A stretch of 64,000 nucleotides of DNA, taken from Desulfatiglandales bacterium (GTDB lineage: Bacteria; Desulfobacterota; DSM-4660; Desulfatiglandales; Desulfatiglandaceae). The position numbers and the translations under genes were made by a program. Below, in pieces: positions 16,859 to 61,820 of this stretch. The notes under the pieces are model-generated. The model did not search any database, was not told where the DNA came from, and was given only the letters and a program-made list of their open reading frames with translations. Numbering within the stretch: the first letter of the stretch is position 1; every line of letters starts with the position of its first letter. The DNA lies in NCBI GenBank assembly GCA_963662465.1, contig OY759599.1:96001-160000 (forward strand), written 5' to 3'.

Positions 16859-16875
16859 TAATCAGTGGGTAAAAA

Positions 16876-38238: not shown

Positions 38239-38489
38239 ATCCTAAGGTTAACCGGCCACCGAAAACAATCGACACATTTGATTCTTTTTGCCATAATTGT
38301 CGAGTTGGAGCTGACTCTGCATTTCACGTTGACTTTCATTTCTGTTCACAGGGCCATTACAATTGTATTCAGAAATTTGGTTCAAATCTTATGAATACCA
38401 TCTGTATTGTGAAAGGCGTTAGAGTTTCGGTATAATGCGAGTATCTTTAACCTCGCTTAGTTCGAATCCAAAGCCTCCACCTCACAAGC

Positions 38490-38676: not shown

Positions 38677-39660
38677 ATGAGACTTGAAGCAGATATAGGT
38701 GGCCGTTACGAAGTGCTCTGCAATGAGACGGGCTACTTCGGCGGAAATGTCATACGTATTGGGGAGCCGAAGGTATGCCGTTTTTGCGGCGAGACAGACA
38801 CCACACTTTTCAAGAAGAAAGCACATACGTTTCCGGAGTCAATCGGAAACAAGTGGGTCTTCTCTCTCGACGAGTGCGATCGGTGCAACTTGCTGTTCGG
38901 AGACTACGAGGATGCTTTGGCAACATGCGTTAGGCCCTTCCTCACCCTCGGCGGAGTCAGAGGAAAGAAAGGAGTCCCTCAGCTCGGCCGGTCTAAGGGC
39001 CAGTCCTCAATCAAGCACATTTTTGAACAAGGAAAGCGAGGTCTTTCCCTGGCGGCGCAAGTTGAAGATCTCGACTCCGTGTTTCGCCCTGGTAGATCCG
39101 CTGGTGTCATTGAGGCTGATTTTATAGTCCCCCCGGCACGCTTCAGGCCTCGCCTAGCATACAAGGCGCTGGTGAAGATGGGTATCGCGCTTCTGCCTCG
39201 AGAGGAGCTGGGGAACTACTCGAAGCTAAGGACATGGCTGCAAACGAAGAACGATGAAGTCGACTTTCCCTCACTGGACGTACTGATGTCGTTCGTTTCA
39301 GTCGGAAACTCGCCAGACATGGTGTCCGGCACCCTCCTGCGACGGCTCGATCCGATAGACGTGGTGCCACACATTCTCTTTTTCCTCACCGCCGGATCTG
39401 TCTGCTTTCAGATCGACTTGCTTGCTGATGAATTGGACTCTCATATCCCTCACGTGGATCCTTGCCACGTAAAGATCCGTTGGACTTCAGTGCTTTTAGG
39501 CGAAAGTGATGACCCTCCCATCAAGCTGCGGTATTCAGATCCAACTTGCCTTGATTGGTCTGCCGCTGACCTTGCGGATCCTCCCGTTGAGAAGTTGAAG
39601 TTCGAATTCAACGTAGCGACGACCCACGCTCAGTGGACTCCCATCATGCGAGAGTCTTAG
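38677..39660 (+). CDS. HNH endonuclease-domain protein (cassette 1)
   Basis: CRFCG..AHTFPESIGN..ECDRCN. Confidence 0.8.
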   Translation: MRLEADIGGRYEVLCNETGYFGGNVIRIGEPKVCRFCGETDTTLFKKKAHTFPESIGNKWVFSLDECDRCNLLFGDYEDALATCVRPFLTLGGVRGKKGVPQLGRSKGQSSIKHIFEQGKRGLSLAAQVEDLDSVFRPGRSAGVIEADFIVPPARFRPRLAYKALVKMGIALLPREELGNYSKLRTWLQTKNDEVDFPSLDVLMSFVSVGNSPDMVSGTLLRRLDPIDVVPHILFFLTAGSVCFQIDLLADELDSHIPHVDPCHVKIRWTSVLLGESDDPPIKLRYSDPTCLDWSAADLADPPVEKLKFEFNVATTHAQWTPIMRES

Positions 39661-39679
39661 TTGAGCCGCGTGTCCATTC

Positions 39680-39748
39680 GCCTAACATCGGGCTGGACGA
39701 GGATGCGCTGGAAAACCGCCCGCCCACCTGTCAGCCCGGCCGTTCGGC
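39680..39748 (+). other. attC site 1 (69 bp)
   Basis: R'' GCCTAAC, 5 nt, L'' GCTGGACG with extra G, L' TGTCAGC, 6 nt, R' GTTCGGC. Confidence 0.88.
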
Positions 39749-39775
39749 TGCAGCACAAAGGAGGTTCAATGCACT

Positions 39776-40954
39776 ATGGACCCAGTAACAAAGGACATTC
39801 TATCCCAGCTCGACAATCTCTTGGCAGCCAGTAATCAATCGTGGCTGTTCGGTGCAGGAATCAGCCTTGATGCAGGGATTCCTCTGATGTGGCCGCTTAC
39901 TGAGCGAGTATTCACGAGGGCAAAAGACGATGGAGAACCGAGTGACATCAAAGTTCTCGAGTTTGTAAAGAGCCAGCTTTCTGACGATTCGCATATTGAG
40001 CACATCTTGAGTCAGCTCGGCGATCACCGCGCGATTGCCGACCGCTCAAAGGACAAGAATGTCGCGTTCGACGCCATTTCTCTCTCGGTGGATGACCTTG
40101 ATGGTCTTCACCAAAGGATTCTGACATGGATTGCTGAGACAATTCGATGGGGATACAAACCTGCTCAACCTGTGGGGATTCCTGAGGAAATTGGGACGTA
40201 TGAGAACCGTATTGTCGTTATCGACAACCATTCAGCATTCGTTTATGCCCTCTTCAATCGAAGCCAAGCAGGAATCGCAGAACGACGGAGAGCAGTCCGG
40301 CTATTTACCACCAACTACGATACCCTCCTTGAAGATGCTCTTGCACTTGGAGGCTTCTCGTGCTGGGATGGGTTCTCTGGCGGCGCGGTCGCGTATCGTA
40401 GCCATCGTTACGGCGACGAAGAGCCAAATCTCAGAGATCGTGCGCATGTAATCAAGCTTCACGGGTCGATCGACTGGCACTTAGGAGAAGATGACCGAGT
40501 CTGGCGAGTCCGCGACGGGGATCTCTATCCTAAGAAAGTTTCTCGGGTTCTAATCTACCCACAAGCCACAAAATACCTTGCGACTCAAAGGGATCCATTT
40601 GCGGCCCAATTTGATCTATTCCGGCGTTCACTTGGGGCACGGGAGGAGAATGTTCTCGCAACATGTGGATACAGCTTTGGGGACGAGCATATCAACCAGG
40701 AGATTGAACTGACGCTACAACGCCCGGAGAACAAAGCAACGGTTCTCGCCTTTGCTCAGAAGCTCAATCCGACTCTCGAAAGGTGGAGGACCGGTCCGTG
40801 GGGTAAACGTGTCTATGTCATTTCAGCGGATGGCTTGTATGTAGGTGCAGACGGACCTCAAGCGCCTCCGACTGCTGGAGCAAAACGAGATTGGTGGACG
40901 TTTTCTGGCGTGACCAAAATGCTAAACTGTGGAGCGGAGGCGTGTGCGCTATGA
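39776..40954 (+). CDS. SIR2-like protein (Sir2-HerA defence pair)
   Basis: LFGAGIS, FTTNYDTLLE, KLHGSIDW, GYSFGDEHIN. Confidence 0.92.
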   Translation: MDPVTKDILSQLDNLLAASNQSWLFGAGISLDAGIPLMWPLTERVFTRAKDDGEPSDIKVLEFVKSQLSDDSHIEHILSQLGDHRAIADRSKDKNVAFDAISLSVDDLDGLHQRILTWIAETIRWGYKPAQPVGIPEEIGTYENRIVVIDNHSAFVYALFNRSQAGIAERRRAVRLFTTNYDTLLEDALALGGFSCWDGFSGGAVAYRSHRYGDEEPNLRDRAHVIKLHGSIDWHLGEDDRVWRVRDGDLYPKKVSRVLIYPQATKYLATQRDPFAAQFDLFRRSLGAREENVLATCGYSFGDEHINQEIELTLQRPENKATVLAFAQKLNPTLERWRTGPWGKRVYVISADGLYVGADGPQAPPTAGAKRDWWTFSGVTKMLNCGAEACAL

Positions 40955-42837
40955 ATACGTTTGAGCTTATTTCGGACCTGAAGATTGGGCACATCGTTGA
41001 GGTGTCCGGAACTACCATTCGGGTAGAGTTATCAGGAGATGTCACGGAGCTCACCCGAACCTATGAGGGGAGAGTTTATCCCATCGGACAGATCGGTAGC
41101 ATCGTAAAAGTCCATTTTGGAAGACGCTTGGTCTTCGGTTTCGTGACGCTGCTAAGAATGAGGTCTGAGGAGCTTCTTGAGATTACAGAGCCCATTCCAC
41201 CCGATGCCGATCAGCGGCTCATGGAAGTCGAATTGTTTGCGGAAGGTATCTGGAACGCAGCAGACCAAAAACTCCGGTTCGTTCGAGGTGTGACGACCTA
41301 TCCGCTTCCCCGTCAAAGCGTGCATCTGCTCACTCGCGAGGAGACTACCCATATATACTCAGCGGCTGAGGGGCAGCAGAATGACGGCGAATATAGCCCG
41401 CTCGTTCCATTCGCTCATTACGTTGGAGCAGACAATGCCTTATGTCGGGCAAACGTAGATAAAATGCTGGGCATGCATTGCGCGGTTCTAGGTTCAACGG
41501 GTTCAGGAAAGTCTGGTGCGGTTGCTGCTTTGCTTCATAGCATGCTGGATCACACCCCTGAACCGGCCGCAGTCTGTCACCCGAGAATCCTCATCATTGA
41601 TCCTCATGGGGAATACGGCCACGCGTTCAAGGAACGTGCGATCGTTTATCGTGCTTACGACCCACTTGGAAACGAAGAGACGACCGGCTCTCCGATAAGC
41701 CTCCCCTATTGGCTCATGTCGGCGGACGAGATCAGGACCTTAGTGATTGGAAAAACTGAACAGGAAGCTACATCACAGAACAACATCATCTACAAGGCCA
41801 TCACCTATGCCCGAATGGTTGCCGCTGACCTTGTTGAGCCTTCCCCGACCGCACATGGCGGAGCGGCCCCTACCGATGGCTTAGACCATGATGCACCACG
41901 GCCAAAGGCAGGAGTTACGTTCGAACAGCTGATTGAGTTCGATCACGACAAGCCGCGACCGTTCAGCCTCCAGGAGTTTTACAACCACATTTTCTATTTG
42001 CAGGCAGCGCGCGTGCAGGGAGGCGCGCTTCAGAGCGTTACGGCTTCTGAATTCGCCTCAAAATTCAAATCCATCTTGGACAAGCTCTCAGTCTTGAGGC
42101 GTGATCCACGGATCCGTTTCATGATGCGGGAATGGAATGATCAGAGCCCTTCACTTGAGCATATTATCGCCCAGTTGGTCGGACAGATCCAAGGTGAGGG
42201 AGGCGTAGATCAAGACATTCGTATTTTGGATATTTCTGGTCTTCCAAATGAAGTGGCCGGTCCACTTGCTGCCATGTTGGCTCGTCTGTTGTTTCAGTAT
42301 AAGGTTTACCAGACAACGGAGGAAAGACGACGCGATCCAGTCGTCTTCGTGTGTGAAGAAGCTCACCGATATGTCCCCGACAGAGGCGAGGCCGAGTATG
42401 CAGCGGCTCAAACCGCAATCCGAAGGATAGCTCGTGAAGGGCGGAAATACGGTATTGGCCTCATGCTCGTGAGTCAGCGCCCCGCCGATATAGAGAGCAC
42501 TGTGATTTCGCAATGTGGCACATGGCTCGTCCTGCGGCTTACAAACGCAGCGGATCAACAGCACGTTTCTCGTTTCTTGCCAGATGGATTGTCAGGCATG
42601 ACGAAAGCACTGCCTAATCTCGCTCAGCAGGAGGCAATCTTCGTTGGCGAAGGCGCTGCGATGCCCGCTCGAGTTCGAATTCGAGATCTCGAAGATGACC
42701 AATTGCCGAAATCGGAGACGGCAAAATTCGCAAAGGGTTGGACCCTTGATCGGCTTACCGAAGCGGAGATTGCAGCAGTCGCTAACCGAATGGCCGGAGA
42801 AGTAATGCACACCCCAGGAGGACAAGAAAGCGTCTAA
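40951..42837 (+). CDS. herA: HerA-family ATPase (Sir2-HerA defence pair)
   Basis: HAS-barrel-like N-terminus, HCAVLGSTGSGKS, DPHGEY, EEAHRY, IAREGRKYG..SQRP; ATGA overlap with sir2. Confidence 0.92.
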   Translation: MNTFELISDLKIGHIVEVSGTTIRVELSGDVTELTRTYEGRVYPIGQIGSIVKVHFGRRLVFGFVTLLRMRSEELLEITEPIPPDADQRLMEVELFAEGIWNAADQKLRFVRGVTTYPLPRQSVHLLTREETTHIYSAAEGQQNDGEYSPLVPFAHYVGADNALCRANVDKMLGMHCAVLGSTGSGKSGAVAALLHSMLDHTPEPAAVCHPRILIIDPHGEYGHAFKERAIVYRAYDPLGNEETTGSPISLPYWLMSADEIRTLVIGKTEQEATSQNNIIYKAITYARMVAADLVEPSPTAHGGAAPTDGLDHDAPRPKAGVTFEQLIEFDHDKPRPFSLQEFYNHIFYLQAARVQGGALQSVTASEFASKFKSILDKLSVLRRDPRIRFMMREWNDQSPSLEHIIAQLVGQIQGEGGVDQDIRILDISGLPNEVAGPLAAMLARLLFQYKVYQTTEERRRDPVVFVCEEAHRYVPDRGEAEYAAAQTAIRRIAREGRKYGIGLMLVSQRPADIESTVISQCGTWLVLRLTNAADQQHVSRFLPDGLSGMTKALPNLAQQEAIFVGEGAAMPARVRIRDLEDDQLPKSETAKFAKGWTLDRLTEAEIAAVANRMAGEVMHTPGGQESV

Positions 42838-44245: not shown

Positions 44246-44614
44246 TTATCTCAGTTCTTCAATCGGCCCAATATCCACCGGCTCTTCCTGGATGGCAATG
44301 TTTGTGGCCTCTGCTCCTTCAGGTCCTTCTGCGACCTCCACCTTGAACAGGTTTACTGTCTGGCCGCGCTTGTTGGTTGTTTTTCCTCCAAAAGTTATCC
44401 TCACCTTTTGGCCTATCTTAACATATTTCATCCTGTCGTCTAAAACCGCAGTGCCCCAGACAAAAAACATACCGGCCTTTGTCTCGAGATAGTATCTGGC
44501 GCTTAAGCCCGATATTTCATCTTTAGGTTCTCTACTGACGAGCACTCCTGTTATCTGCTCATTTTCTTTTTCAGGTTTCCAAACGCCTGGTTCTATGGTC
44601 TTCCATTCATCCAT
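44246..44614 (-). CDS. Putative OB-fold ssDNA-binding protein
   Basis: Beta-rich core (VWKPE..ITGVL..FFVWGTAVL..GQKVRITF.GK..FKVEV) with acidic tail. Confidence 0.55.
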   Translation of the reverse strand: MDEWKTIEPGVWKPEKENEQITGVLVSREPKDEISGLSARYYLETKAGMFFVWGTAVLDDRMKYVKIGQKVRITFGGKTTNKRGQTVNLFKVEVAEGPEGAEATNIAIQEEPVDIGPIEELR

Positions 44615-44744
44615 TTTTTTCACCTCTAATTCTGTCAACCGAGGAATTTCTCCTCTATGGGCCAGCGAAAACAGTCAGATTTATTAAATCTTTCCTTTGC
44701 GAGACCCTGCATAATGACATGGCGCGGGAACCGGACGGATGGGA

Positions 44745-45905
44745 TTACATGGTTTTACGTTCGAGTTTAAGGAGCCCTTTCTCTGTTTTTATGAGACCGG
44801 TGATTTTCCTTTCCAGGTCTCTAATATCTTGTATCATCCCGGAAAGATCCTTCAAAAGGACCCGGGCCTTTGCAAGATAAGGCGTTGATTCATAGGGATA
44901 ACCCGCCTGCATCTTTTCCATGGCGGCTTCGAGAAAACGGTTGAAGGCTTGCAGGTGCTGTTCCAGCCGCGATTCGGTTCCCATTACCCTTTGTTCAAGG
45001 TTGATTTTTTCTTCCTCCCGTGAAATTTCCGCTTGAAGCACATACCGCTCTTTTCCAGAAAGCTTGGTCAACCGGTCTTTGAGCTCTTTCAATTGGTTCA
45101 TGTCTAATGTTTCCAAACGCCTGAACACTTCTTTGAGATGTACAAGTTCATTTTTGAACAGGGTTTCTTTGCTGGAAATTGTTTTCAGGGTTCGAACGAT
45201 TGTTTCACGGGCCTCTCTGGGAAGACTGTTTCTATTATTTTCCACGGCTTTTTGGATCTCTCCCAATTCCGAGGCAATGTCATCCACCGTGTGAAGCTGT
45301 ATTTCAGTTGATTTTCCGGCTTCCTTAAAAACCATTTTTTTCTCCCGATCTTCGACGTCAATTTCTTGTTCTACCTTCGCTCTGAAGGGATTTGTAATGT
45401 TGCGAACGGTCAATCCGCGAGGCCTGTGGAATTGGAAGATTTTGTAAAGGCTTACAATAAAGAGGATGAGGAGTCCCAGATTGACCAACCCGAGATTACG
45501 CTCGCCGAGGTTGTAATATACTTCCGGGAATTTGAACCATGACAGGATATAGAAAAGAATATAGGTCAGGTGAAATGCTTTTGCCGCAGCCATGCCAAAG
45601 CCCCTGCACAGACCGAAGGGTACAGTGGCCGCCATAAAAACCAGCAAGATGGTTCCCAGCATTCCCCAGCCTTCGAAGATGTTGGCGATACGCTCCCGCA
45701 TCATGAAAACGCCCACCGTGAGCATGAGCCCCACAGAGATGATCAGAGGCCTGACGTAGGGTTTTGTGAAATGCTTTCTGAGGGTAATGCCGGCAATGGA
45801 TATGAAAAAGACCAACAGGACGGTGAAATAGATCCATTCGGTATACCTGGCGAGGATCTCACTGGGTTTGAGGATGTCCAGCGGGAAAAGCGTGGGGGAA
45901 GGCAT
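44745..45905 (-). CDS. Membrane protein with about 5 TM helices and a long coiled coil
   Basis: Hydrophobic N-terminal half, heptad-rich C-terminal half. Confidence 0.7.
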   Translation of the reverse strand: MPSPTLFPLDILKPSEILARYTEWIYFTVLLVFFISIAGITLRKHFTKPYVRPLIISVGLMLTVGVFMMRERIANIFEGWGMLGTILLVFMAATVPFGLCRGFGMAAAKAFHLTYILFYILSWFKFPEVYYNLGERNLGLVNLGLLILFIVSLYKIFQFHRPRGLTVRNITNPFRAKVEQEIDVEDREKKMVFKEAGKSTEIQLHTVDDIASELGEIQKAVENNRNSLPREARETIVRTLKTISSKETLFKNELVHLKEVFRRLETLDMNQLKELKDRLTKLSGKERYVLQAEISREEEKINLEQRVMGTESRLEQHLQAFNRFLEAAMEKMQAGYPYESTPYLAKARVLLKDLSGMIQDIRDLERKITGLIKTEKGLLKLERKTM

Positions 45906-45993
45906 AGTTGGAGGGATGTGTGGCCGGATTTAAATATTTTGCGGTGTTCTGATGGAAATAAGGCCCGTGTCTATCGTGGGTTTGGTGGCAATA

Positions 45994-46425
45994 TCAGTGG
46001 ACTTGTTGCTGTAGGATCTCGACTAACGCCTCCGAGGAATCTGCAATTCTGCTGCAAGAACACTCAATCATCGCGTTGACTATCGAGTTTTCAGTCTCCC
46101 CGGCGTTTCTGAAATCGGTCCTGATCCCAATGATGGGCAGCTTATTTAAGTGTTTACAATAGAAATACCCGATTTCCCAAGCCGTACCATCATCGACCTG
46201 TGGACCGTCCAGGACACAGACAAGGACATCCACCTCATCGAGGTACGACCTGCATATTTCAAATATCTTTTGTTTCCCCTGGGAATTCGCTTCGTCATGC
46301 GGGATGAGATCGTAAGGCCAAATGACGGTTATGTCCTTTGAGATTTCTTCAAGTTTTCTCTTAATACCGGCAAGCCAGGCCCGTTCGCATTCAGAGAATA
46401 AAGGTCCTGCAAGATATATTTTCAT
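45994..46425 (-). CDS. Nucleoside 2-deoxyribosyltransferase family protein
   Basis: KIYLAGPLFS, DGPQVDDGTAWEIGY, RTDFR, NAMI. Confidence 0.88.
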   Translation of the reverse strand: MKIYLAGPLFSECERAWLAGIKRKLEEISKDITVIWPYDLIPHDEANSQGKQKIFEICRSYLDEVDVLVCVLDGPQVDDGTAWEIGYFYCKHLNKLPIIGIRTDFRNAGETENSIVNAMIECSCSRIADSSEALVEILQQQVH

Positions 46426-46640
46426 TTGGAGCACGCTCCTTTTTGAAAAGCCTTTTCCAGAAAAATTCCGTGACCCAAAAAATTTATCAAATAGATAAAT
46501 ATAGATGCCGATGCAAGAATCACCACGAGAAAGATTGCATAGGCCGTCAGCAGTATTGTCAGGATAACCTTATCAGGATGTCTAAGTGATCACTTTCGGT
46601 AAAGAGTGAATTCATCGGCGATTTTTTTGGGTCTCTTATA

Positions 46641-46783
46641 ATATTGATGGTCCCGTAAAAAGTCCCCAAGCCCGCCACCCTCGCGAAAGCGGGGGTCCAT
46701 AAGCCCCTGACTTTCCTGGATTCCCGCTTTCGCGGGAATGACTAAAACGGACGATTTTTGACTTTTTACGACTGCATCAATAT
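46641..46783. mobile_element. MITE-like palindromic element
   Basis: Imperfect TIR atattgatggtcccgtaaaaagtc / gactttttacgactgcatcaatat; internal ATTCCC-N8-GGGAAT hairpin; supplies the stop codon of the PIN-like gene. Confidence 0.75.
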
Positions 46784-47148
46784 CCAACCATTTTCGGCCG
46801 CCGAATTCTCAGCTTTCCGGGCGTTGCCACACCGATACAACCTGCCAACCTCTCCAGCATACCTGATTTCAAAACTTCCTGAATCAATTGTTTCATTTGG
46901 GGGATTCCTTCACCCTCAGGTCTCAGGAGTAATACGCCGTAATGGGTTCCCGGTGGGTGTTTTCGAATATTAGCAAATCCTTTATCACCCGTAATAAGGA
47001 AGCGTTCTTCCTTTTGAGCGATTTCCCAGAGTTGCGGATCCAGAGCTCCAGAAATTCCTTCTTCCAGGACGGATGCTGTATCCGGAAAAACCTCGCGCAC
47101 AAGCTCGACAACGGCTTTGGGCAAATCTTCGTCTATTTTTATCTTCAT
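46777..47148 (-). CDS. DUF5615 PIN-like toxin
   Basis: MKIKIDEDLP..LITGDKGF..G.LLLR. Confidence 0.85.
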   Translation of the reverse strand: MKIKIDEDLPKAVVELVREVFPDTASVLEEGISGALDPQLWEIAQKEERFLITGDKGFANIRKHPPGTHYGVLLLRPEGEGIPQMKQLIQEVLKSGMLERLAGCIGVATPGKLRIRRPKMVGY

Positions 47149-47150
47149 CG

Positions 47151-47387
47151 TTAACTGGCCATGGCATAGACGGATTCCTGAGACACCGATTCAGAAGCGT
47201 ACATTAAAGCCGCTGAAACATCATCGTTAGTGAGTTGAGGATATTCTTTCAATACATCCTCCCTATTCAATCCCTGAGCCAGGCTTCCAACAATCACACT
47301 GACGGGAATGCGGGTTCCCTTGATACAAGGCTCCCCCCCTCTGAGATCAGGATGAGAAATGATCTTTTCCAAAAAAACCTGTTTCAT
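47151..47387 (-). CDS. DUF433 antitoxin
   Basis: GGEPCIKGTRIPVS..EYPQLT.DDV.AALMYA. Confidence 0.9.
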   Translation of the reverse strand: MKQVFLEKIISHPDLRGGEPCIKGTRIPVSVIVGSLAQGLNREDVLKEYPQLTNDDVSAALMYASESVSQESVYAMAS

Positions 47388-47765
47388 AACGTCCCCTCCA
47401 AAATTTCATTTATGCTCACGCAAAGTCTTTATACGTCCATGGCAAAAATGCTTTGGCCACTTTTTCAATCAACGCATAAACGCGATCAATATTCTCAGAA
47501 GTTCTATGAATTCGTCCAGTTCCATACTCTGGCACGATTACTTTGAAAACCGTACCGGTCCCCATAGATTCTGAGCAAGGCAATAATGTCAAGAAGCCAA
47601 CCTCTCAAGGGATATTTCAAGCAAGATTAGAAATCAAGGAAAAAACTTAATCGACTTACTGGCGCAGACTTATTTGCAGTAAAATCTTTTGATTCAGTAC
47701 CAATCTCTCATCTGAGCATCGAGCATTTTGATGCTGATTGCGGGAATTTGAGGTACGTGGGAAGA

Positions 47766-48013
47766 TTTCCTGTGGAAACGGATTTTAGCATTTGTGGTAT
47801 GCTTTTTCAACTTTTCCGGTTATCACCAATCAGGGACGACGTTTATAAACATCATCACCATTATATATATTTTACAATATTGTAAATAAATATATATATA
47901 ATAACATTACTTTTTTACCTGCTGAAGTTCCACAGGACATTTACCCCTCCAGCTCGGTTGCCACTTTGAAATGGTCATTAACATTTAAATACTGCCTCTG
48001 TTTCATGTGGAAG
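47766..48013. promoter_or_regulatory. Putative archaeal-type replication origin: ORB-like boxes around an AT-rich core
   Basis: TTTCCTGTGGAAAC (47766-47779); AT-rich 47861-47917; GTTCCACAGGACA (47927-47939); box with G-string on the minus strand (47943-47971); GTTTCATGTGGAAG (48000-48013). Confidence 0.6.
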
Positions 48014-48016
48014 TAG

Positions 48017-49273
48017 ATGAAGGAAATGTCCGATGGAAATTTTTTGAAGCCGGATAGTACTGAATCACTAATCGAATCTCTCCATGCCACTCAGAGGAAG
48101 AGAACCTTGGTCATCAACCCTGATTATCTTGATGACGAAAAACTGCCGGAAGATGAAAGGGCAGCCGTTCTAAAAGAAATCTTTAATCGTAACATCCGTG
48201 AAAAACAACTGAGTAGAATCATTTCCCATCTCGCACCGGTCCTGGATGGTATTCACCCGAATTCTGCCTTGATCTTCGGACCAACCGGCGCCGGAAAAAC
48301 AGTTACTTTGATGCACGTACTTTCCACCTTTGAATGGGTCGCTGAAACCAAGGGAGTCATGTTCCGCTATTCGTATATTGATTTGACCTCCCCAAAAACC
48401 TACTTTGGCGCCTTAAATGAGGTCGCTATTTCTCTTGATAGCGCATGCAAAAAATACCGTAAAGGTATTCCAATTGAGTACATGCAGGCGCAAATAGTGG
48501 AGTCGCTCGGAAATTATGACGGTTACCTCAGTCTACTCATCGATGAGGCTGACAACATCCGGCCTAACTCCGACGGCTTTCTCACATTTCTTGCAAAAAC
48601 ACTTCCCCGGAAAGTCTCTTGCAGATTGATTCTTGTTCTCCTGACCAATCGGCTTGACTGGGAGAAAACCCTTGACCCCAGGATTCTGAGTTTTTTCAAA
48701 AAAACCGATATGATCTTTGAACCCTATGACGCCCTTGATCTCCTTGAAATCCTGAAACTCAGGGTTGAGAAAGCCCTTGATATGACCAAGGTCGATATGG
48801 CTGCGCTCAAAAAGGTGGCTGCTTATGCCTCACGGGAAACCGGAGACGCAAGAAAGGCCGTTGAACTTCTGGCCAAAGCTGTCAAGGTAGCCGAAGAAAG
48901 CACGGGACGGCTCTCGGAAAAAGAAGTCGATATTGCGGCAGACCGACTTGAGATAGACAAGACAGAAGAACTTGTCAAGGCACTTGCGACCCAGCAGCGT
49001 GTAGCCCTGAAGTCCTGTTATGGCGCCTTATCAAATGGCAGCAAAAAGACATATACAGGCCAGGTTTACCGGGTCTATGGGGACGTATGCGGTCGGGAAG
49101 GCCTGCGGCCTCTAACCCAGAGACGTTTCTCTGAGATAATGAGCTTTCTCGATCTTTACGGTCTGATCAATGCCAGAGTCATCTCAAAAGGTCGATACGG
49201 AAACACGCGGGAGATATCAAGTTCTTTGCCGGATGAGGTTGTGGAGCGTTTTCTTTTTTCCAGTATCTATTGA
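48017..49273 (+). CDS. cdc6: Orc1/Cdc6-family replication initiator
   Basis: GPTGAGKT, IDEAD, LDPRILS, FEPYDA..L..IL..R, GDARKAVELL, winged helix LTQRRFSEIMSFLDLYGLINARVISKGRYGNTREI. Confidence 0.9.
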   Translation: MKEMSDGNFLKPDSTESLIESLHATQRKRTLVINPDYLDDEKLPEDERAAVLKEIFNRNIREKQLSRIISHLAPVLDGIHPNSALIFGPTGAGKTVTLMHVLSTFEWVAETKGVMFRYSYIDLTSPKTYFGALNEVAISLDSACKKYRKGIPIEYMQAQIVESLGNYDGYLSLLIDEADNIRPNSDGFLTFLAKTLPRKVSCRLILVLLTNRLDWEKTLDPRILSFFKKTDMIFEPYDALDLLEILKLRVEKALDMTKVDMAALKKVAAYASRETGDARKAVELLAKAVKVAEESTGRLSEKEVDIAADRLEIDKTEELVKALATQQRVALKSCYGALSNGSKKTYTGQVYRVYGDVCGREGLRPLTQRRFSEIMSFLDLYGLINARVISKGRYGNTREISSSLPDEVVERFLFSSIY

Positions 49274-49513
49274 ATTCCGAATTCAGAAAGGAAGGCCAAT
49301 CGTTCCCTTTGGCGGATTTCAATGCAAACAGCCTTCAAAACAGCTTCCTCCCGAATTATAGTATCCTTACAGTCGCCGTTCTCATTTCCCAATCTCCTCA
49401 AATCCATTTCAATTTTTCTTGATAAAATCCGTAGATCTCTTATCCTTTCAATATAGGTGTAAGACAACCTCACCTCCACCACCCGGGGCGGAGCATCAGG
49501 GCGTAGATGACCG

Positions 49514-49663
49514 TTAATCATCTTTGATCCTGACCCTCGAAGTGAATTTTCTTCCACAATCATTGCATTTTCTCAGTCGAACTTTGCCGTCGGCCAATTT
49601 ACGATGCCCTTTCCATATGGTCCGCGTGCTGCGGCAATAGGGGCATTTATACGGTCTTCCCAT
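49514..49663 (-). CDS. 49-aa zinc-ribbon protein (below the ORF-track cutoff)
   Basis: My translation: MGRPYKCPYCRS..WKGHR..RKCNDCGRKFT; RBS GAGGTG. Confidence 0.6.
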   Translation of the reverse strand: MGRPYKCPYCRSTRTIWKGHRKLADGKVRLRKCNDCGRKFTSRVRIKDD

Positions 49664-49806
49664 AAATAATCACCTCGGTCCCTTCAGGATATTCGTTTAT
49701 ATAAAAAGTTTTCGCCTTTGAAGCCTCGCTACATTTCAAGCTGGAGACAGGAACCGAAACATTATTATGTATGAACCTGTCTTCACGTCTCTAAAAGGCC
49801 CGAGAG

Positions 49807-50604
49807 GTGGTATTTGTGCAAAGTGAATTAAGGGGTGCAACGGCCCTGGTGCAAGAAATAAAGGTCAGCAGCCCGCTCGTATCAGCAGTTATTCGAATCC
49901 TAAAGCGTGTCGATGACTTCAAAAAGCTCGCCAAGGAATTCTATTTTGATGTCATTCTATCCGTCCACCAGTGCCCGCGGTGCGGTAGTCGATTAGAAAT
50001 GACCGGAAAAAGCGAATGCTCCTGTGTGTGTGGCAATATCTTTGATCCAACAATTGCCTTTCAGAAATCCGCTTGTTGTGGCAAGCACCTGGTTCGCAAA
50101 TCACAGCATTATATCTGCTCCGGATGTGGAACAAACGTTCCCTCCACATTCCTTTTCGATGAGAAACTGTTTGATAAAGCCTATTTCAGGGAGATGGTAA
50201 AGAAATCCAGATCACGGGCTGCAAAAAGAAGGGAAGAGATGAAAAGGCTTTTGGCAGAGAGCAGATCAGGGGCACTGGTTTTCGCTGATGAGCCCTGCCT
50301 TGAATTCATCCCGGGGCTTATTGAAGATCTGGATGATTTTATTGGAACAGAAAGACTCAGGCCAGGGGATTTCGCTCTGGATACCAACTCAAGTTTCAAA
50401 ATGGACGATTATCGCGAGCACATCCTTCGTATTCTGGGATGCGACAGTCTATTGTTTTCAGATATTGATACCCTTATTAGTGATGCGCGCCGGGACAAAA
50501 TATGGCGATTTGTGACGCTCACGTTCATGCAAAGCGCAAGGGAGGTCATGCTCACCCAGTATGGCAACGATCTCTTAGTGGAGAGGACTTCATATGAAAC
50601 TTAG
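49807..50604 (+). CDS. Multi-zinc-ribbon protein with wHTH-like C-terminus
   Basis: CPRCG, CSCVCG, CCG, CSGCG clusters. Confidence 0.7.
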   Translation: MVFVQSELRGATALVQEIKVSSPLVSAVIRILKRVDDFKKLAKEFYFDVILSVHQCPRCGSRLEMTGKSECSCVCGNIFDPTIAFQKSACCGKHLVRKSQHYICSGCGTNVPSTFLFDEKLFDKAYFREMVKKSRSRAAKRREEMKRLLAESRSGALVFADEPCLEFIPGLIEDLDDFIGTERLRPGDFALDTNSSFKMDDYREHILRILGCDSLLFSDIDTLISDARRDKIWRFVTLTFMQSAREVMLTQYGNDLLVERTSYET

Positions 50605-50950
50605 CAATAAAAATAAGGACTTTTTGGAACGGTTGAAGGTTCTCCTCATTAGTAAGGAGCTTAGCATAGAGTGGAAAGATGACGGCATAAAGCGGCTCGT
50701 GCTGCGGCAAAACTATGGGGACAAAGTTGAACGGGATTTTAATATGACCCGGCAGGGAGTCCGCTGGAGATTTCAGCGCCTGTTTAACGAAATTTATGTC
50801 AACGCCTATCTCACCGTGTACTGGATCGAGTCCAAGTTTGGGACAGAGTTACGAGCGAGGGCCTTGGAAATCGCAAGAGAGAGGGTTGAACTCAGGAAAA
50901 AGGCGGAGGAAAAGGGCTTTTTTGATGTTTCCCGTCGAGAAAAGGGATGA
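50594..50950 (+). CDS. Hypothetical protein
   Basis: Overlaps the upstream stop; RBS GAGG. Confidence 0.65.
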   Translation: MKLSNKNKDFLERLKVLLISKELSIEWKDDGIKRLVLRQNYGDKVERDFNMTRQGVRWRFQRLFNEIYVNAYLTVYWIESKFGTELRARALEIARERVELRKKAEEKGFFDVSRREKG

Positions 50951-51231
50951 TTGGCCGCCGGATCAAGGGGCGGGCGATTGTAAAGGTTTTCGCCCTCCTA
51001 ACAAATCCTTCAAATCGGGCCTGCAAATGAGGGAAAACCATTCAAACCAAAGCCATTTGCCCATAAACTTGGCTTGTTGAGCGCAGATTCCACGGAATCG
51101 CACGGTTTTCGGGAAATGGCCATCTTCCTTCCCTGATCCAGTTTGGGCCTGGAAAAATTTTAACATCATTGAAAACGAGCGACCCCCTTTCAAATGCCCT
51201 ATTTGGACCAAAAAGGCAGGGGTGAAAAAAC

Positions 51232-51645
51232 ATGGCTGGCACAAAAATAGATTTTAACTACAATAAGATTACTCGGATACAGGGTTTGGATGAGCTTGGA
51301 GTAGTGCTGTTTCCGGGAAATAGGAACCATCAAAAGGTTTTCCTGAGCATCTTCATAGAATTGAAATACGCAAACAACGGGCTCTTGGGCAGCCTGACTT
51401 ACCTTTGTGAGAAATATGGATTCACGCCCCGGATGCTGGAGACCGTCCGCAGCAAAATGCGACGGATGGGGATTATTGACCATGTGTCCCGCTTCAATAA
51501 GAATCATGGCTACAGAGAAGGCTGGGTGTTTTCAAGCCGATTCTCAAAAACCTTAAAACGGATGAATGAACTGTTAGTGAGTTTCAGGGAAAGAGCCGAC
51601 GCCCTTCAAGAGAAAAAGGACCGGGACTTGTTCCGCTATCTATAA
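51232..51645 (+). CDS. Hypothetical protein, wHTH-like
   Basis: LCEKYGFTPRMLETVRSKMRRMGIIDHV pattern. Confidence 0.6.
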   Translation: MAGTKIDFNYNKITRIQGLDELGVVLFPGNRNHQKVFLSIFIELKYANNGLLGSLTYLCEKYGFTPRMLETVRSKMRRMGIIDHVSRFNKNHGYREGWVFSSRFSKTLKRMNELLVSFRERADALQEKKDRDLFRYL

Positions 51646-51703
51646 AATAATGATTTTGAAAACCTATAGCTTTAAATAGGTCCCGCATTTTCTGGAGAAC
51701 GAG

Positions 51704-52162
51704 GTGCTCAACGTGGACCGAAACTTAGAAAATCTACTCTATGGAAAAAGGGACCCAAAGCTCAAATCCGAAGGCGAACGTAGAATTGCATACTTTTTGG
51801 AGGAAAATTCAATCAGGTATCAATACGAAGCTGGCGTCCTGGTCAATTCGATCGAAAAAAAACCACGCATCTGGTACCCGGACTTTTATCTTCCCGAGTT
51901 TGGCGCCTACATTGAATATTATGGCCTAAAGGGACAGCGAAGCTATGACAACGGAATCAAGAGAAAAGAAACGACATATTCAAAAATGGGTCTGGATGTA
52001 ATACCTGTTTATCCATGGTCATTTTCTGAGAACTGGCAGGGCTATATTATGAAAGAACTCAAACAAAGTGTGGACCGACGTTACAAAACACTGATGAGCA
52101 AGCCTTACTGGTCACAAAAGAATACTTCCGGATATCATGGGGGATCCACCAGGCGTTACTGA
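51704..52162 (+). CDS. PD-(D/E)XK-like nuclease domain protein
   Basis: KSEGERRIAYFL..YPDFYLPE..YIEYYG. Confidence 0.75.
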   Translation: MLNVDRNLENLLYGKRDPKLKSEGERRIAYFLEENSIRYQYEAGVLVNSIEKKPRIWYPDFYLPEFGAYIEYYGLKGQRSYDNGIKRKETTYSKMGLDVIPVYPWSFSENWQGYIMKELKQSVDRRYKTLMSKPYWSQKNTSGYHGGSTRRY

Positions 52163-52309
52163 TCCATGGTGTTTATTCTCTGTGTTCTCTTTCATTCTAT
52201 GTACTTCTTTAGGTGTGATGATGGGTTTGGGTGTCTTTTTATTATTATATTCGGTTTTCGGTACATGGGATATCTAACTGTTATTGCGGGATTTTGTGGA
52301 AATGAAAGA

Positions 52310-52448
52310 GTATCATAAATGGTCATTTTTTTTGTTCTTAGAAGGTATTTATGATACAATTTAGAGGAATAATGGTACCTTTTGGATGGAATTACGGTAC
52401 ATTTTGGACCTATTTATGATACCTTTTTCGCATTTATGATACAATTTA
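52310..52448. repeat. Iteron-like 11-mer ATTTATGATAC x4 (one inverted)
   Basis: 52310-52320 (reverse), 52347-52357, 52412-52422, 52432-52442. Confidence 0.8.
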
Positions 52449-52533
52449 TCTGAGCTGTGGTCGGTACTTATTACCACCGATTTAATTCGGTACTATCAGA
52501 TATTAAGGACATGAATTTAAATGGAAGGGACGG

Positions 52534-53466
52534 TTATGCTTTGAGAGGCAGCACGGGGGTTCGGCAAGCGGAAGTACCTAAGATCGATTCTGAAGGGGCC
52601 TCTTGTTTTCCGGCGCGGACCCAGATTTCGGCCGATAAGCCATGGGAGAACATCTGTTCAAGACTTGTCAGCCATATAAAATCCGAGGGCGGCATTTCCT
52701 GAACCAGCCTTGACAACACCGCCAGCCGACCGTTTGTATTGGTGAGGAAGAGGAGACGGAACCCCTTCAGATTGCAGTCCCAGTATTTCTCGTACCGTTT
52801 ATACCGGTCGCTTCGAAAATATTCCTGATAGTTTATGACTTTCTGGCGTACGTCCCGGGGGTCGCGTTTTAGACTGGCAACGGACTCTGTCCCCATGTCC
52901 ACCTCAAGAAAGAAAAGGAGCGTGATCTGCCTTTTTCTGTTCGTTATGGAGAAAACTCCGTCCGGGGTAAATCCACTTGCATTTTGATCCTTTTCGCCAG
53001 CGGGTGGCGGTTCAAATATGAGAGGGATGTCACTTTTTTCCCGTTTTAAGAAAGGCGAATCGGGGGAGAGGAACCGGATGGAGAATTCAGGCATCGCGTA
53101 CTCCATTTCGCCCAAATGGATACGGAACCAGTTGGTTAAGAGTTGATGCTCCATGCAGCGGATTTTTTCAGCGTTTATCTTATTAATCGGCACGTCCCGG
53201 AGGACTGGATATTTAGGACCGAGCAGATCGGCGCCTTCTTGGGTGAGAGAGACCATTTTTTCAGGTCTGCCGCGACTCTGACCGAACCCGCGGGTAGCTG
53301 TGATAATGACCCCCGCCTGTTCCAGTTTTTGCAGACGCCTTCGGACTACCTGCCTGCTCTTACGTTGGATGGCAGTGACCTGGCTTGCTGTTAGCACTCG
53401 ATGCTCGGCAATTGCAGTAAGGACCTGGTGGTCGTTTTTGTTAAACTTGAATGTCATTGGATTCAT
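52534..53466 (-). CDS. Replication-relaxation (Replic_Relax) family protein
   Basis: N-terminal wHTH (VRRRLQKL..AG), H.L..N, TPDGVF, FFLEVDMGTES. Confidence 0.85.
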   Translation of the reverse strand: MNPMTFKFNKNDHQVLTAIAEHRVLTASQVTAIQRKSRQVVRRRLQKLEQAGVIITATRGFGQSRGRPEKMVSLTQEGADLLGPKYPVLRDVPINKINAEKIRCMEHQLLTNWFRIHLGEMEYAMPEFSIRFLSPDSPFLKREKSDIPLIFEPPPAGEKDQNASGFTPDGVFSITNRKRQITLLFFLEVDMGTESVASLKRDPRDVRQKVINYQEYFRSDRYKRYEKYWDCNLKGFRLLFLTNTNGRLAVLSRLVQEMPPSDFIWLTSLEQMFSHGLSAEIWVRAGKQEAPSESILGTSACRTPVLPLKA

Positions 53467-54389
53467 TCCTCCTTTTTGGAATTTTCGGGGCTATTTTTAG
53501 TAGCTGGTACGGTTTGGTTTTGACTATTTACCCATGCTCGAACAGCTTGAAGCGCTTTTTTCGGAACAGGTGTAGTCCCGTTTAACCATGCTTCACATGT
53601 CTTTGGCTTTTTTCGACCTGTTATGCCTGAAAGTTGACCTGCACTGAAGTTATGTTGTTTGTGAAGGGCCATGAGTTCCTTGTTTGAGGGGGCAGATTGT
53701 AACGTTTCATTTGGCGTTGCCTTCTGAATCATCCACGCCGCGCTCGTTGCCACAGTGAGACCTATGGAGAGGGGTTCGAGGACCAGAACTAGAATGAGAA
53801 TGAGCATGGCAATGGCGTCTGTTTCGTTGATTTTTAATATCTTAGCGACCGCGAAAATAGGGCCGGAGGATGTCTGATCTTTGACAAATCGGGTTTCAAG
53901 TTCAGCTTGCTGTTTTGCAATTTCCAGCAGCCTGGCCTGTTTCTGTCCATAACCGGATGCTTTTCGTTCTTTTATTCGCCTCGTTACATGAGAAGTCGGA
54001 AGCCCTGCTAATGTGGCGTTTGTGGTCAATATTTGTTCTTGGAGAATTGCCGCCTCTTTTTTGAGCCCTTTAAGGGCGGTTTCGGTGGCTCTCAAGTTTT
54101 GGGTCGCCCTGGCGTGACTCAGTGACAAGAAACCTATGACTTCAATGGAAGTCAATAAGACCAGAACGGATACGATGATAACGTACAGGCTTTTGGTAAG
54201 ACCACCGAGTTTTTGCCAGTTCCGGTACAGGTGGGCCACGGTCAAGATTTTGCCGATTTCCATGCCGAGACCCATACACACAATAACGGAAGCATTGCTG
54301 ACAAATACAGACATCAGTCCGTACACGGACATGTATATGGAGCTTCCTGCAACCAGCAACAGACTGGTTGTCACAAGAATGCGGTACAT
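53463..54389 (-). CDS. Membrane protein with coiled coil and C-terminal HTH
   Basis: TM helices with MEIGK motif, coiled coil, LEPL TM, HTH-like tail; overlaps the replication-relaxation gene start. Confidence 0.7.
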   Translation of the reverse strand: MYRILVTTSLLLVAGSSIYMSVYGLMSVFVSNASVIVCMGLGMEIGKILTVAHLYRNWQKLGGLTKSLYVIIVSVLVLLTSIEVIGFLSLSHARATQNLRATETALKGLKKEAAILQEQILTTNATLAGLPTSHVTRRIKERKASGYGQKQARLLEIAKQQAELETRFVKDQTSSGPIFAVAKILKINETDAIAMLILILVLVLEPLSIGLTVATSAAWMIQKATPNETLQSAPSNKELMALHKQHNFSAGQLSGITGRKKPKTCEAWLNGTTPVPKKALQAVRAWVNSQNQTVPATKNSPENSKKEE

Positions 54390-54462
54390 GATTCACACCT
54401 CCCTTTTTTCCGGGAACAAGCTGGCGGGTACTGATTGAAAAACATGACCTTTTTCTGACCAT

Positions 54463-54680
54463 CCGGTTTTGGTCTGATCCGGCCAGGGTTTTTGGTGGTT
54501 TGATCAAGTTCCTTTTTGTCTGGTCAGGTTTTGGTCAGGTTTTGGTCAGGTTCGGTCCAGTTCCCGTCCGGTTTTGGTCAGGTTTTGGTCAGATTCCATT
54601 CTGGTCAGACTGATTCAGGTTTTTTTCGTTTCAGGTTCTTTTCATGTTTCCCGGTTTGGTCAGGTTTTGGAACAGATTCG
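54463..54680 (+). repeat. Degenerate 10-11 bp periodic array (GGTTTTGGTCA)
   Basis: e.g. ggtcaggttttggtcaggtttggtcagg and ccggttttggtcaggttttggtcag. Confidence 0.8.
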
Positions 54681-54715
54681 GGCCGTCTCGGATTGTGATG
54701 GTTCTTCAATGTTTC

Positions 54716-55426
54716 CTAAAATCTCACAATGCACTTTTGGACCCAAGGATCTGCAATGGCTTTCAGCTTGAGGAGTTCGTCCTTGTCATGACCAGCGCCT
54801 GTTTTGGCGAAAAACAGGGGATTCAGTACTCCATTATTATGGAATCGCTGTAAGGCATAAAGCTCAGCGCCCTTTATGGTTCGCACAACATTTTTCATGC
54901 TTTGTTCATCCACGATCGGTTTTATGCAGGTTGTCCTGAACTCATAGGGTATGCCTGATCCCATGATGTTTTCAATGCTTGCGAGCGTTTGGTCTGGATC
55001 ATATTCTTTCGCGATGGTGGATGGATAGCGGAGAGGATCGGTCTTAACATCCATGGCGATATAGTCAACGAGCCCCTCATCGATCATACGTTTGATGACT
55101 TCCGGCCGGCTGCCGTTTGTGTCCAGTTTGATCAGATAGCCGATCTCCTTTATTTTCGTGCATAACAAAACAAGCTCCTTCCGGAGCGTTGGTTCTCCGC
55201 CGGAAATAACCACACCGTCAATGAAGCCTTTGCGGTTTTCAAGAAACTCGCAGAACGCTTTTTCGTCAAGTCCATTTGAATATCCTGAACCGCCTTTTAC
55301 GAGCTGTGGATTGTGGCAATAAGGACAGGTGAAATTGCAGCCCGAAACAAAGAGCACACAGCTTAATTTCCCGGGATAGTCAATCAGTGAATTCTTTTGT
55401 ATTCCACCGATAATCATTGAATGCAC
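54716..55426 (-). CDS. nrdG: Anaerobic ribonucleotide reductase activating protein (radical SAM)
   Basis: SLIDYPG, GCNFTCPYCHNP, SGGEPT, KLDTNG. Confidence 0.93.
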   Translation of the reverse strand: MHSMIIGGIQKNSLIDYPGKLSCVLFVSGCNFTCPYCHNPQLVKGGSGYSNGLDEKAFCEFLENRKGFIDGVVISGGEPTLRKELVLLCTKIKEIGYLIKLDTNGSRPEVIKRMIDEGLVDYIAMDVKTDPLRYPSTIAKEYDPDQTLASIENIMGSGIPYEFRTTCIKPIVDEQSMKNVVRTIKGAELYALQRFHNNGVLNPLFFAKTGAGHDKDELLKLKAIADPWVQKCIVRF

Positions 55427-55461
55427 TCCTCATCGATCCGGTTTTGTTCCGCAAGAAAACT

Positions 55462-57180
55462 TCAGGCCGCCTCAAACACTTTTCTCATATCGTATTCTGC
55501 TTGTTTTCCGTCGTTCCACTGCTTGACAGGTCTCAAGTAGCCAACGACCCGCGAATAAACTTCCGTTTCTTTCCCGCAATCAGGGCAGCGTTTTTGCTCT
55601 CCGTTCAGGTACCCGTGGGACGGACAGATGCTGAAGGTTGGAGTCAGTGTGAAATAGGGAAGCCTGAAATGATTAACAACCTTCTTGAGCAACGCCCTTA
55701 TTGATCTAACGTCACTGACTTGTTCCCCCAAATAAATATGAAGGACTGTTCCCCCCGTATATGTTGCCTGCAATTGGTCCTGTAACTCCAAGGCTTCGAA
55801 AATATCGTCCGTGTAATTTACGGGTAGCTGGGTAGAGTTTGTATAAAAAGGTGCAGCTCCTTTTCGGTATTCCGCTTCATTTGCACAGATGATTTCAGGG
55901 AACCTTTTCTTGTCAAGCATCGCAAGTCGATACGATGTGCCTTCTGCAGGCGTTGCTTCTAAGTTGAACATTTCGCCTGTCTCATCTTGTATTTGGGAAA
56001 TGATTGTGCGGATATGGTCCATGGTTTTGAGGGCAAATACCTGTCCTTTTTCACTTCCGATGTCCCTCCCAAACAAGTTCAGGCACGCCTCGTTCATGCC
56101 GATGATTCCGATGGTTGAAAAATGGTTTTTCCAGTAAAGCCCAGTGCCCTCTTTGATCTGTCTTAAGTAGAATTTTGAATAGGGATAGAGGTTTTTATCT
56201 GTGAAATTCTCAAGGACTTTCCTTTTTATTGTGAGGCTCTCTTTTGCAAGGTGAACAAGCTTTCCCAAATGCTTCATGAAATCATCCTCGCTATCCGCCT
56301 GATATCCTATGCGGGGGAGGTTAATGGTCACGACTCCGATTGAACCCGTCAGGGGGTTCGCGCCGAAAAGACCGCCGCCTCTTTTCAGGAGTATCCTGTT
56401 GTCAATGCGAAGGCGGCAACACATGGATCTTGTGTCTTCAGGCGACATGTCGGACCTGACAAAGTTTGAAAAATACGGAATCCCGTATTTCCCTGTCATG
56501 GCCAGGATCGCTTCAAGCACTGGGTTGTCCCAATCAAAATCTTTTGTGATATTGTAGGTAGGTATGGGAAAGGTGAAGACACGCCCTTTGGCATCGCCCT
56601 CCATCATGACCTCGGCAAATGCCCTATTGATCATGTCCATTTCTATTTGAAAATCGGAATATGTCTCTTTTTGTTCGATGCCTCCTATGATGACACGTTG
56701 GTTTCTCAGAGTTCGAGGGGGGGACAGGTCTAAAGTAATGTTGGTAAATGGGGTTTGGAAGCCGACTCTGGTCGGGACGTTTATGTTGAAAATAAATTCT
56801 TGCAGCGCCTGTTTCACTTGTCGGTAATCAAGGCCGTCATACCGAATAAAAGGGGCAAGAAGGGTGTCAAAATTTGACATAGCCTGAGCGCCGGCAGCTT
56901 CACCTTGTAATGTATAGAAAAAATTAATAATTTGTCCTAAAGCAGGCCTGAAATGTTTAGGTGGTGCACTCTCGACTTTCCCCAGGACACCCTTGAAGCC
57001 TTGCATGAGCAAGTCTCTCAGTTCCCAACCAACACAATAAACAGAAAGGAGGCTGAGGTCGTGTATGTGGAAATTTCCTCTTCTGTGTGCGCGCCGAATT
57101 TCCGGGGGGTATATGTGGCTTAACCAGTATTCAGAGGTGATATCCGATGAAATATAGTTATTGAGCCCCTGAAGGGAATA
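55462..57180 (-). pseudogene. nrdD: Class III ribonucleotide reductase, 5'-truncated at an IS end
   Basis: HIHDL, RSMCCRL, EATPAE, CPSHG..CPDC, YSRVVGYLRPV; sequence upstream of YSLQGLNN is the IS terminal repeat. Confidence 0.9.
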
Positions 57181-60499: not shown

Positions 60500-60526
60500 T
60501 TAACAACAAGGCCGTGAGGGGCGGCT

Positions 60527-61796: not shown

Positions 61797-61820
61797 TTCA
61801 ACTAAAGGGGGTGTTCTCAA

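Follow-up and report, generated by a model that had tools for sequence, protein, structure and literature searches.

Introduction

The bacterial (DnaA/DnaB) and archaeal (Orc1/MCM) machines for replication initiation are described as unrelated (PMC5333045). In the accounts given of Sulfolobus oriC1 and Orc1-1 (PMC12141716, PMC3607249), the origin is laid out as ORB3-DUE-ORB2 with a central ucm, ORB1 and the adjacent orc1-1 gene. The euryarchaeal ORB consensus is given as GTTCCAGTGGAAAC-AAA----GGGGG (PMC1868953), and the AAA+ region of the archaeal initiator is reported to read the G-string (PMC3936714).

Here we describe an orc1/cdc6 gene and its upstream region in a bacterial genome. The window, by which we mean the whole stretch of 64,000 nucleotides analysed, corresponds to C1:96001-160000 of a single-contig genome of 8.16 Mb that is rated 100% complete and in which DnaA, DnaB and a tmRNA are present. 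As in the archaeal oriC1-type layout, inverted boxes flank an AT-rich element beside orc1/cdc6. A bacterial point of comparison is provided by iteron plasmids, whose winged-helix Rep initiators load host DnaB; iteron replicons combine an initiator gene beside its sites, an AT-rich unwinding element, autorepression and reliance on the host replisome. Our locus shares with them the initiator beside its sites and the AT-rich element, and presumably also autorepression and use of the host replisome, but it has an AAA+ Orc1 initiator and one inverted pair instead of tandem iterons.

With oriC1 as described for Sulfolobus (PMC12141716, PMC3607249), the locus shares a pair of inverted boxes flanking an AT-rich element, a central motif that is conserved and a third box, and with Orc1-1 the adjacent position of the initiator and the same wing and recognition-helix motifs; unlike oriC1, it lies on a bacterial mobile element with no intact MCM, and spacers in its family measure 82-223 bp. 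The TTCCA-NN-GGAA core and the G/C-rich tail of its boxes are shared with the euryarchaeal ORB (PMC1868953). Like the ori-cdc6 pairs reported from haloarchaeal secondary replicons, it has its own linked initiator on a mobile replicon (PMC3936714, PMC4010727, PMC3528665), and haloarchaeal plasmid Orc1/Cdc6 proteins are ~27% identical to the window protein. A literature search, whose coverage excludes most subscription journals, found no title or abstract start describing a bacterial Orc1-ORB module.

The features of the module are as follows.

47755-47780, plus strand: left ORB-like box, 31.0 bits, genome rank 2; outer (5') tail G-rich, core toward the AT-rich spacer
47781-47924, no strand: AT-rich spacer, candidate unwinding element, 73% AT
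47833-47849, plus strand: GGGACGACGTTTATAAA motif in the spacer
47871-47886, no strand: central AT palindrome, local form of the family motif TTTC-N-ATAT-W-GAAA
47925-47950, minus strand: right ORB-like box, 31.1 bits, genome rank 1; inverted relative to the left box and containing the GGAGGGGT tail
47962-47991, plus strand: CACT..AGTG operator-like palindrome (degenerate here), then a BRE-TATA-like box at 47980-47991, ahead of orc1
48001-48013, plus strand: degenerate box core, 8 nt past the TATA-like box and over the expected transcription start; core score 12.5
48016-48041, plus strand: third strong box, candidate autorepression site, 26.4 bits; overlaps the orc1 start codon
48017-49273, plus strand: orc1/cdc6, 418 aa, AAA+ plus winged helix with an Orc1-1-like wing

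A complete Orc1/Cdc6 protein from a family with bacterial hosts

The original prediction had described a complete Orc1/Cdc6 protein with AAA+ and winged-helix domains and a SKGRYG wing motif, and profile searches bear this out. The open reading frame scores 235 bits against TIGR02928 (cut-off 181), matches Pfam Cdc6_lid and Cdc6_C, and has SKGRYG at residue 390. None of the archaeal equivalog cut-offs (NCBIfam PRK00411 type) was passed, the best score being 226.6 against 501. The best solved relatives of the family profile are 2qby_A (E 8e-62) and then 2v1u_A, with the winged-helix QRR and GRYG stretches aligned. The Walker A/B, sensor and arginine-finger motifs and the ORB-reading wing are intact, and these are conserved in 120 proteins. 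The probable start lies at 48026 and reads Met-Ser-Asp-Gly; MS[DCY]G occurs near the N-terminus in 34 of the 120. Relative to Sulfolobus Orc1-1, the N-terminus has ~30 extra conserved residues and the AAA+ insert has also diverged. In the ATPase domain, where an MCM-recruitment surface would be expected, the lid and the stretch that follows Walker A diverge family-specifically from the outgroup Orc1 consensus. The gene is present in a single copy in the whole host genome. Its dN/dS is 0.039-0.066 in four pairs with estimable dS (four other pairs are saturated), and on this codon comparison orc1 is under purifying selection.

A word search for relatives returned 1447 matches among 8000 scored candidates, the best 120 being 72-100% identical. 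Labelled members come from Thermodesulfobacteriota/Deltaproteobacteria, Planctomycetota, Zixibacteria, Myxococcota and Aminicenantes; all host-labelled members are bacterial, and one 90% cluster includes both Desulfobacterales and Aminicenantes. Counting the centre genome in each case, carriers number 4 of 401 genomes in the phylum (one with only a 30% match), 9 of 209 in the class, 1 of 401 around genome G402 and 2 of 285 around G403 (one weak). Host spread is patchy, as for mobile elements. Among plasmids, 399 records matched, all at <60% identity, and those listed are archaeal; the phage collection gave no match and IMG/VR nothing beyond two weak ones.

In two quick trees against other Orc1 proteins (SH-aLRT only, midpoint root), the family stands on a separate long stem. 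Seventeen of the 20 rows grouped as bacterial have a bacterial label or genome, and the other three are unlabelled metagenome contigs. There are two deep subfamilies, ~40% identical, with bacterial hosts in both. The named archaeal proteins close to the family (Woesearchaeota, Micrarchaeota) fall outside the clade, so a DPANN donor may be taken as a lead, not a result.

Conserved inverted boxes with an opposite-strand tail

A box matrix of 26 columns was built from 26 homologous upstream regions, with the window excluded. Its top three sites in the 8.16-Mb genome all lie at orc1 (26-31 bits), the next best scoring 23, and when the three closest relatives are left out of the matrix the boxes still score 29.8, 30.9 and 24.7. 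The boxes are conserved upstream of homologues, as an origin reading would have them: with leave-out matrices, an inverted pair 82-223 bp apart occurs at 23 of 30 loci, against 0 of 1200 dinucleotide shuffles. These 30 loci are those with >55% identity that reach the gene start, and among them are the window and two pairs of near-duplicates; of the seven lacking an inverted pair, one has just 268 bp of sequence. The pair is also found in two further genomes, one from the distant subfamily, while a third, distant genome scores <16 bits. In a scan of 39 stretches, the strong boxes were concentrated at orc1, bar two single exceptions. The canonical ORB 13-mer is at chance level in the window (3 matches at no more than 2 mismatches, 2.41 expected); the box signal comes from the comparison of homologous loci.

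All strings quoted in the original prediction are present, with the left box at 47766-47779, the palindrome at 47871-47886 and the right box at 47927-47939 on the minus strand, but its account of three oppositely oriented boxes on the far side of the spacer holds only in part. The right box stands, as the best site in the genome; TTTCAAAGTGGCAAC does not (best overlapping core score -6.2), and GGAGGGGT, read as its 3' G-string, is instead the 5' flank of the right box. TTCCACATGAAAC corresponds to the degenerate core, for which 12 of 24 loci reach a score of at least 6 in the matching region, but it is best read on the plus strand. The strong box over the orc1 start codon had been missed.

A G-string 3' of the ORB core is absent; the G-rich tail lies 5' of the core, which amounts to a C-rich tail on the other strand. 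Followed from the spacer outward, the family box has a T-/C-rich end where the ORB consensus has AAA and G (PMC1868953), so that the tail strand is opposite. The AAA+ region corresponding to the archaeal G-string reader has changed in this Orc1 family. Haloarchaeal G-strings appear, from a figure legend in PMC3936714, to point away from the spacer, and if they do, the geometry has been kept and only the tail strand has changed.

The spacer core at 47860-47910 is 92% AT and, by nearest-neighbour energy, contains the least stable 50-bp window of the whole genome. The TTTC-N-ATAT-W-GAAA motif occurs in 14 of 21 spacers, compared with 2.8% of shuffles, at 30-47 bp from the right box, and recalls the ucm described for Sulfolobus oriC1 (PMC12141716) by position only. 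A motif related to GGGACGACGTTTATAAA is found in 9 of 21 spacers in either orientation, a raw count with no shuffle baseline, and is a candidate for a second TATA-like or protein-binding site.

The module lies on a probably integrative element

The genes used below to describe the element are these.

21500-57180, no strand: remaining element, approximate extent; shared genes run from ~21.5 to 57 kb, with a host IS4 copy at 36544-38246
30404-33881, minus strand: operon of a coiled-coil gene, a Cas4-like PD-(D/E)XK nuclease and a HerA/DUF87 ATPase; TATA-like box at 33869-33881
44246-44693 region, minus strand: small conserved gene, no Pfam match; TATA-like box at 44682-44693
44745-45905, minus strand: membrane and coiled-coil gene; BRE-TATA-like box at 45928-45940, 21 nt before the ATG, no Shine-Dalgarno
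49807-50604, plus strand: cysteine-rich protein with a C-terminal winged helix, in 12 of 32 element groups holding orc1
50594-50950, plus strand: 118-aa protein, in 8 of 32 such groups
51232-51645, plus strand: winged-helix protein, in 13 of 32 such groups
51704-52162, plus strand: nuclease-like gene; TATA-like box at 51668-51678
52534-53466, minus strand: Replic_Relax gene, relaxase-like
54716-57264, minus strand: cargo genes nrdG and nrdD; the nrdD 5' end is cut by an IS (match begins at profile position 122 of 684)
57181-59188, no strand: host IS with ~24 further chromosomal copies; right-hand limit of the element, and cuts short a separate P4-like integrase

No att site or family integrase was found for the window copy, and its left end is not fixed. 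Several element copies are broken; the one in the window has lost its integrase end, looks immobilised and single-copy, and is probably silent. A relative in genome G896 preserves a complete element of ~68 kb between tRNA-Asp and its 48-bp repeat, beside a tyrosine integrase. Among the 29 ORFs scanned in it were a beta clamp, HU, a RepB-type primase and defence genes, and neither MCM nor DnaB; a HerA-like gene was found separately.

The relaxase occurs in only 4 of 20 other element groups and a HerA-like ATPase, at 34% identity or above, in 5 of 20, many groups being short fragments. The HerA/DUF87 ATPase of the window has winged-helix-like and nuclease-like parts at its C-terminus and is a candidate translocase or helicase. 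Among the ORFs scanned, no type IV secretion mating-pair genes were recognised, only the relaxase-like gene and the HerA/VirB4-like ATPase.

The three conserved neighbours at 49807-51645 are candidate adaptors or regulators. Structure models of two of them gave generic winged-helix matches only (best Z 7.7 and 8.8), and the Atlas returned no result for the 118-aa protein. For the winged helix at the C-terminus of the 49807-50604 product, Foldseek placed ScpA/kleisin structures first (E 0.02) and the Atlas match was 0.77; the protein could contact host SMC, a lead drawn from a generic match. The small gene at 44246-44693 possibly encodes an OB-fold single-strand binding protein.

Other contents of the element were recorded alongside. 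The HNH, SIR2-like and HerA genes at 38677-42837 resemble the SIR2-HerA anti-phage system, and in relatives, similar places are taken by BREX-, CBASS- and type I restriction-like genes. An 11-nt repeat array lies between the relaxase operon and nrdG (54507-54691), with similar units in the relative stretch L015, and might serve as an origin of transfer or as a binding array. The cargo has many genes for repair and for supplying nucleotides (NrdD/G, NrdJ, dCMP deaminase, deoxyribosyltransferase, spore photoproduct lyase, RtcB, Sir2), found in stretches L020, L022, L023, L064 and L015 and in the window at 45994-46434 and 54716-57264. The XPB-Bax1 pair is typical of archaea, and an XPB-Bax1-like pair occurs in a bacterial genome at L075:12221-14912, beside a paralogue of the window gene at 44745-45905. 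To the right of the element, 59197-64000 holds a separate degraded P4-like satellite with the truncated integrase, an int-alpA RNA (the sole Rfam match) and AlpA-like and primase-like remnants.

The helicase question

The original prediction had seen no MCM in the window, and a search extended to the rest of the element found none either. In the host as a whole, the MCM AAA+ family gives weak, non-specific matches only, a family that also matches in 14 of 14 control genomes. MCM_OB was not found in 9 other carrier genomes searched, and it passes its cut-off in 1 of 209 class genomes, which is this host with a motor-less fragment. This MCM N-terminal fragment (285 aa, C1:39485-40342, minus strand, 104 kb from orc1, with a second copy at C1:8092623) scores 84 bits for MCM_OB, has 1ltl_A as its best solved match and lies in a stretch of 29-35% GC. 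No AAA+ motor domain is recognisable after the break, and IMG/VR holds no relative of the fragment. The C-terminal winged helix of MCM is described as its contact with Orc1-1 (PMC5333045, section 2.6); the fragment lacks it and therefore cannot serve as the helicase. Nearby, C1:42100-42590 is non-coding; in it an AT-only core is surrounded by several inverted repeats of the form CTCTACG..CGTAGAG, and a TATA-like box follows, 24 nt ahead of a gene distantly paralogous (26%) to the window gene at 44745-45905. This stretch could be where a second archaeal-derived element, of the MCM type, has its origin.

We conclude that the module is a variant, not a full member, of the archaeal oriC1/Orc1-1 system, because both the polarity of the G-string and the availability of an intact MCM were tested and differ here. 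The original prediction, that an archaeal initiator-origin pair was kept on a bacterial mobile element, thus survives in this modified form, with conservation, selection, bacterial host labels and the complete tRNA-integrated relative in its favour.

No helicase gene common to all elements was found. We rank host DnaB above the HerA-like ATPase because the melting site is extreme, the cargo includes bacterial replisome genes and HerA is patchily distributed. Loading of host DnaB on the melted DNA, much as plasmid Rep proteins do it and perhaps via the neighbouring winged-helix proteins, is a tentative proposal made by analogy, with a rather less than even chance of being right; the HerA-like ATPase, our second choice, is doubtful as the helicase.

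A probable origin that would also control its initiator

Taken together, the sequence comparisons make it probable, though well short of certain, that the feature is the origin of the excised element, at which a non-MCM helicase, most likely host DnaB, would be loaded, and where Orc1 would repress its own gene. The elements would form a family of integrative elements of anaerobic bacteria, with a module descended from the archaeal Orc1-1/oriC1 type. After excision, Orc1 would bind each inverted box with its winged helix on the core and its AAA+ domain on the outer tail, and would help to open the AT core, which is very unstable. By occupying the degenerate box and the start-codon box, Orc1 would shut off orc1 and limit copy number. 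In the tested hosts, MCM could not be the helicase. The original prediction had posed replication and autoregulation as alternatives; they are not exclusive, since an origin would suit the inverted pair, and autoregulation the boxes that cover the likely transcription start and the start codon.

Counting against an origin are the single-copy depth, the lack of a skew switch, the variable spacer, the 7 of 30 loci without the pair and the broken state of several copies. Host GC skew turns near 1.8 and 5.4-5.7 Mb, with no switch at the orc1 locus. The host has two full-length DnaA-family matches (C1:4828139 and C1:5768458), the latter near the GC-skew minimum.

TATA-like boxes and a possible archaeal reservoir

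The promoter-like box ahead of orc1, AA-NN-TTWAWATA, has A at -4 in 24 of 25 loci and at -3 in 21 of 25 (one row is mis-anchored). With a matrix built from orc1-upstream sites alone, 33 core and other families were tested against 200 shuffled sets each. BRE-TATA-like boxes upstream of five non-orc1 core families scored above all 200 sets, a sixth family scored above 199 of 200 and four more stood at 0.015-0.05; the other 23, including anti-restriction genes, gave no signal. For the five families, the antisense strand scores lower. In one of them (window 44745-45905), 10 of 12 rows have the ATG 20-24 nt past the box and lack an SD-like 4-mer, several of the rows being close kin.

The archaeal match is one of sequence and spacing, an A-rich BRE and a TATA at a set distance from the start. 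Shared with archaeal leaderless BRE-TATA promoters, as reported in PMC5316973, are the A-rich element, the TTWAWA box and a start codon ~27 nt from the box centre; the element promoters differ in being known from sequence alone and in hosts that, where tested, are without TBP (0 of 6 genomes, this host included) and TFB (0 of 5, likewise). TATA-like promoters in such hosts fit an archaeal phase.

A two-box bacterial promoter was rejected, as 33 pooled non-orc1 sites show no conserved second box and 58 sites no sigma70 -10 enrichment (3 against 6.9). A possible reader is an alternative sigma factor whose second box is poorly conserved. The box is not a host-wide promoter type (no peak, 36 against 30.5), and comparison of all element leaders with host leaders gave a weak signal (3 of 31 against 160 of 3598, with many spurious ORFs among the 31). 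RNA contigs of the relative X12 cover the region, coverage that is no proof of transcription.

These promoters speak for an inter-domain shuttle with an archaeal reservoir, whose origin and promoters would function only where an archaeal host provides MCM, TBP and TFB, the bacterial copies being integrated passengers. The element integrases, which score best on the archaeal XerA model though below its cut-off, point the same way, as does the low-GC MCM fragment by a distant paralogue of an element gene, which shows archaeal-type DNA entering the host. We nevertheless consider a shuttle unlikely: the host-labelled family is bacterial throughout (archaeal genomes were covered by one exact-peptide scan, whose 5 matches are all bacterial), both named DPANN proteins fall outside the clade, and the elements have bacterial cargo and, read by eye, sigma70-like promoters on one accessory gene family.

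Boxes as possible operators

Alternatively, the boxes could be only operators or a protein-loading site, with Orc1 a regulator or partition-type factor and the element replicating passively or via its relaxase. Their overlap with the start codon and the likely transcription start would suit such a role, and so would the single-copy depth and the Replic_Relax gene. One genome even has two copies in which only 18 nt separate the left box from a divergent promoter-like site. An outward promoter-like site is nevertheless found at the left box in just 3 of 21 loci; the left box is therefore not simply a second operator, and its function as a divergent operator was rejected. Its presence at the 18 other loci would stay unexplained, as would the extreme AT core and the central palindrome. 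Nor do the boxes occur across the elements in the way a regulon would have them, and few groups hold the relaxase. We regard this explanation as rather improbable, and keep to that of an origin with autorepression.

Integrity of the assembly

An independently assembled contig, possibly from the source sample, equals 46713-56554 with zero differences and at host-like depth. In the best-matching run, depth is 36.7 for the origin contig and 913 for the IS with ~25 copies, which fits one element copy per chromosome, with no sign of amplification. An assembly chimera or archaeal contamination, a danger that the original prediction had raised, is extremely improbable even though an end-to-start duplication of the genome reaches window position ~5960, because near-identical host IS copies sit inside the element and the identical 9.8-kb contig has single-copy depth, and relatives lie on bacterial contigs of 1.96 Mb and 4.8 Mb.

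The duplications are large and near-identical (C1:8082092-8161625 against C1:29146-101959, contig end against start), begin at the tmRNA 3' end, and are either tandem island copies or an assembly overlap. Window positions 1-19000 hold a polysaccharide gene cluster with strong GC skew and many short G-rich repeat families, with 7-nt units such as GGAGGAC and TTTTGGG and also GATTACGCA units, some within ORFs; such families recur at 28110, 30373 and 34421.

Implications

To the original prediction, our analysis adds the opposite-strand tail, the genome-wide ranking of the boxes, the operator and two-box tests and the MCM fragment. The findings may reflect an archaeal-style programme in bacteria, in which Orc1 would load a non-MCM helicase and an element factor would read TATA-type promoters without TBP, or a shuttle replicating in both domains; we hold this to be possible, if somewhat unlikely. 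The system is of testable size, one small gene and a 300-bp fragment, and bears on whether Orc1 itself opens DNA, a matter called unsettled in PMC5333045. A selected Orc1-ORB origin in bacteria would mean that Orc1 hands over to another helicase, that the element crosses domains, or that the module has a new job.
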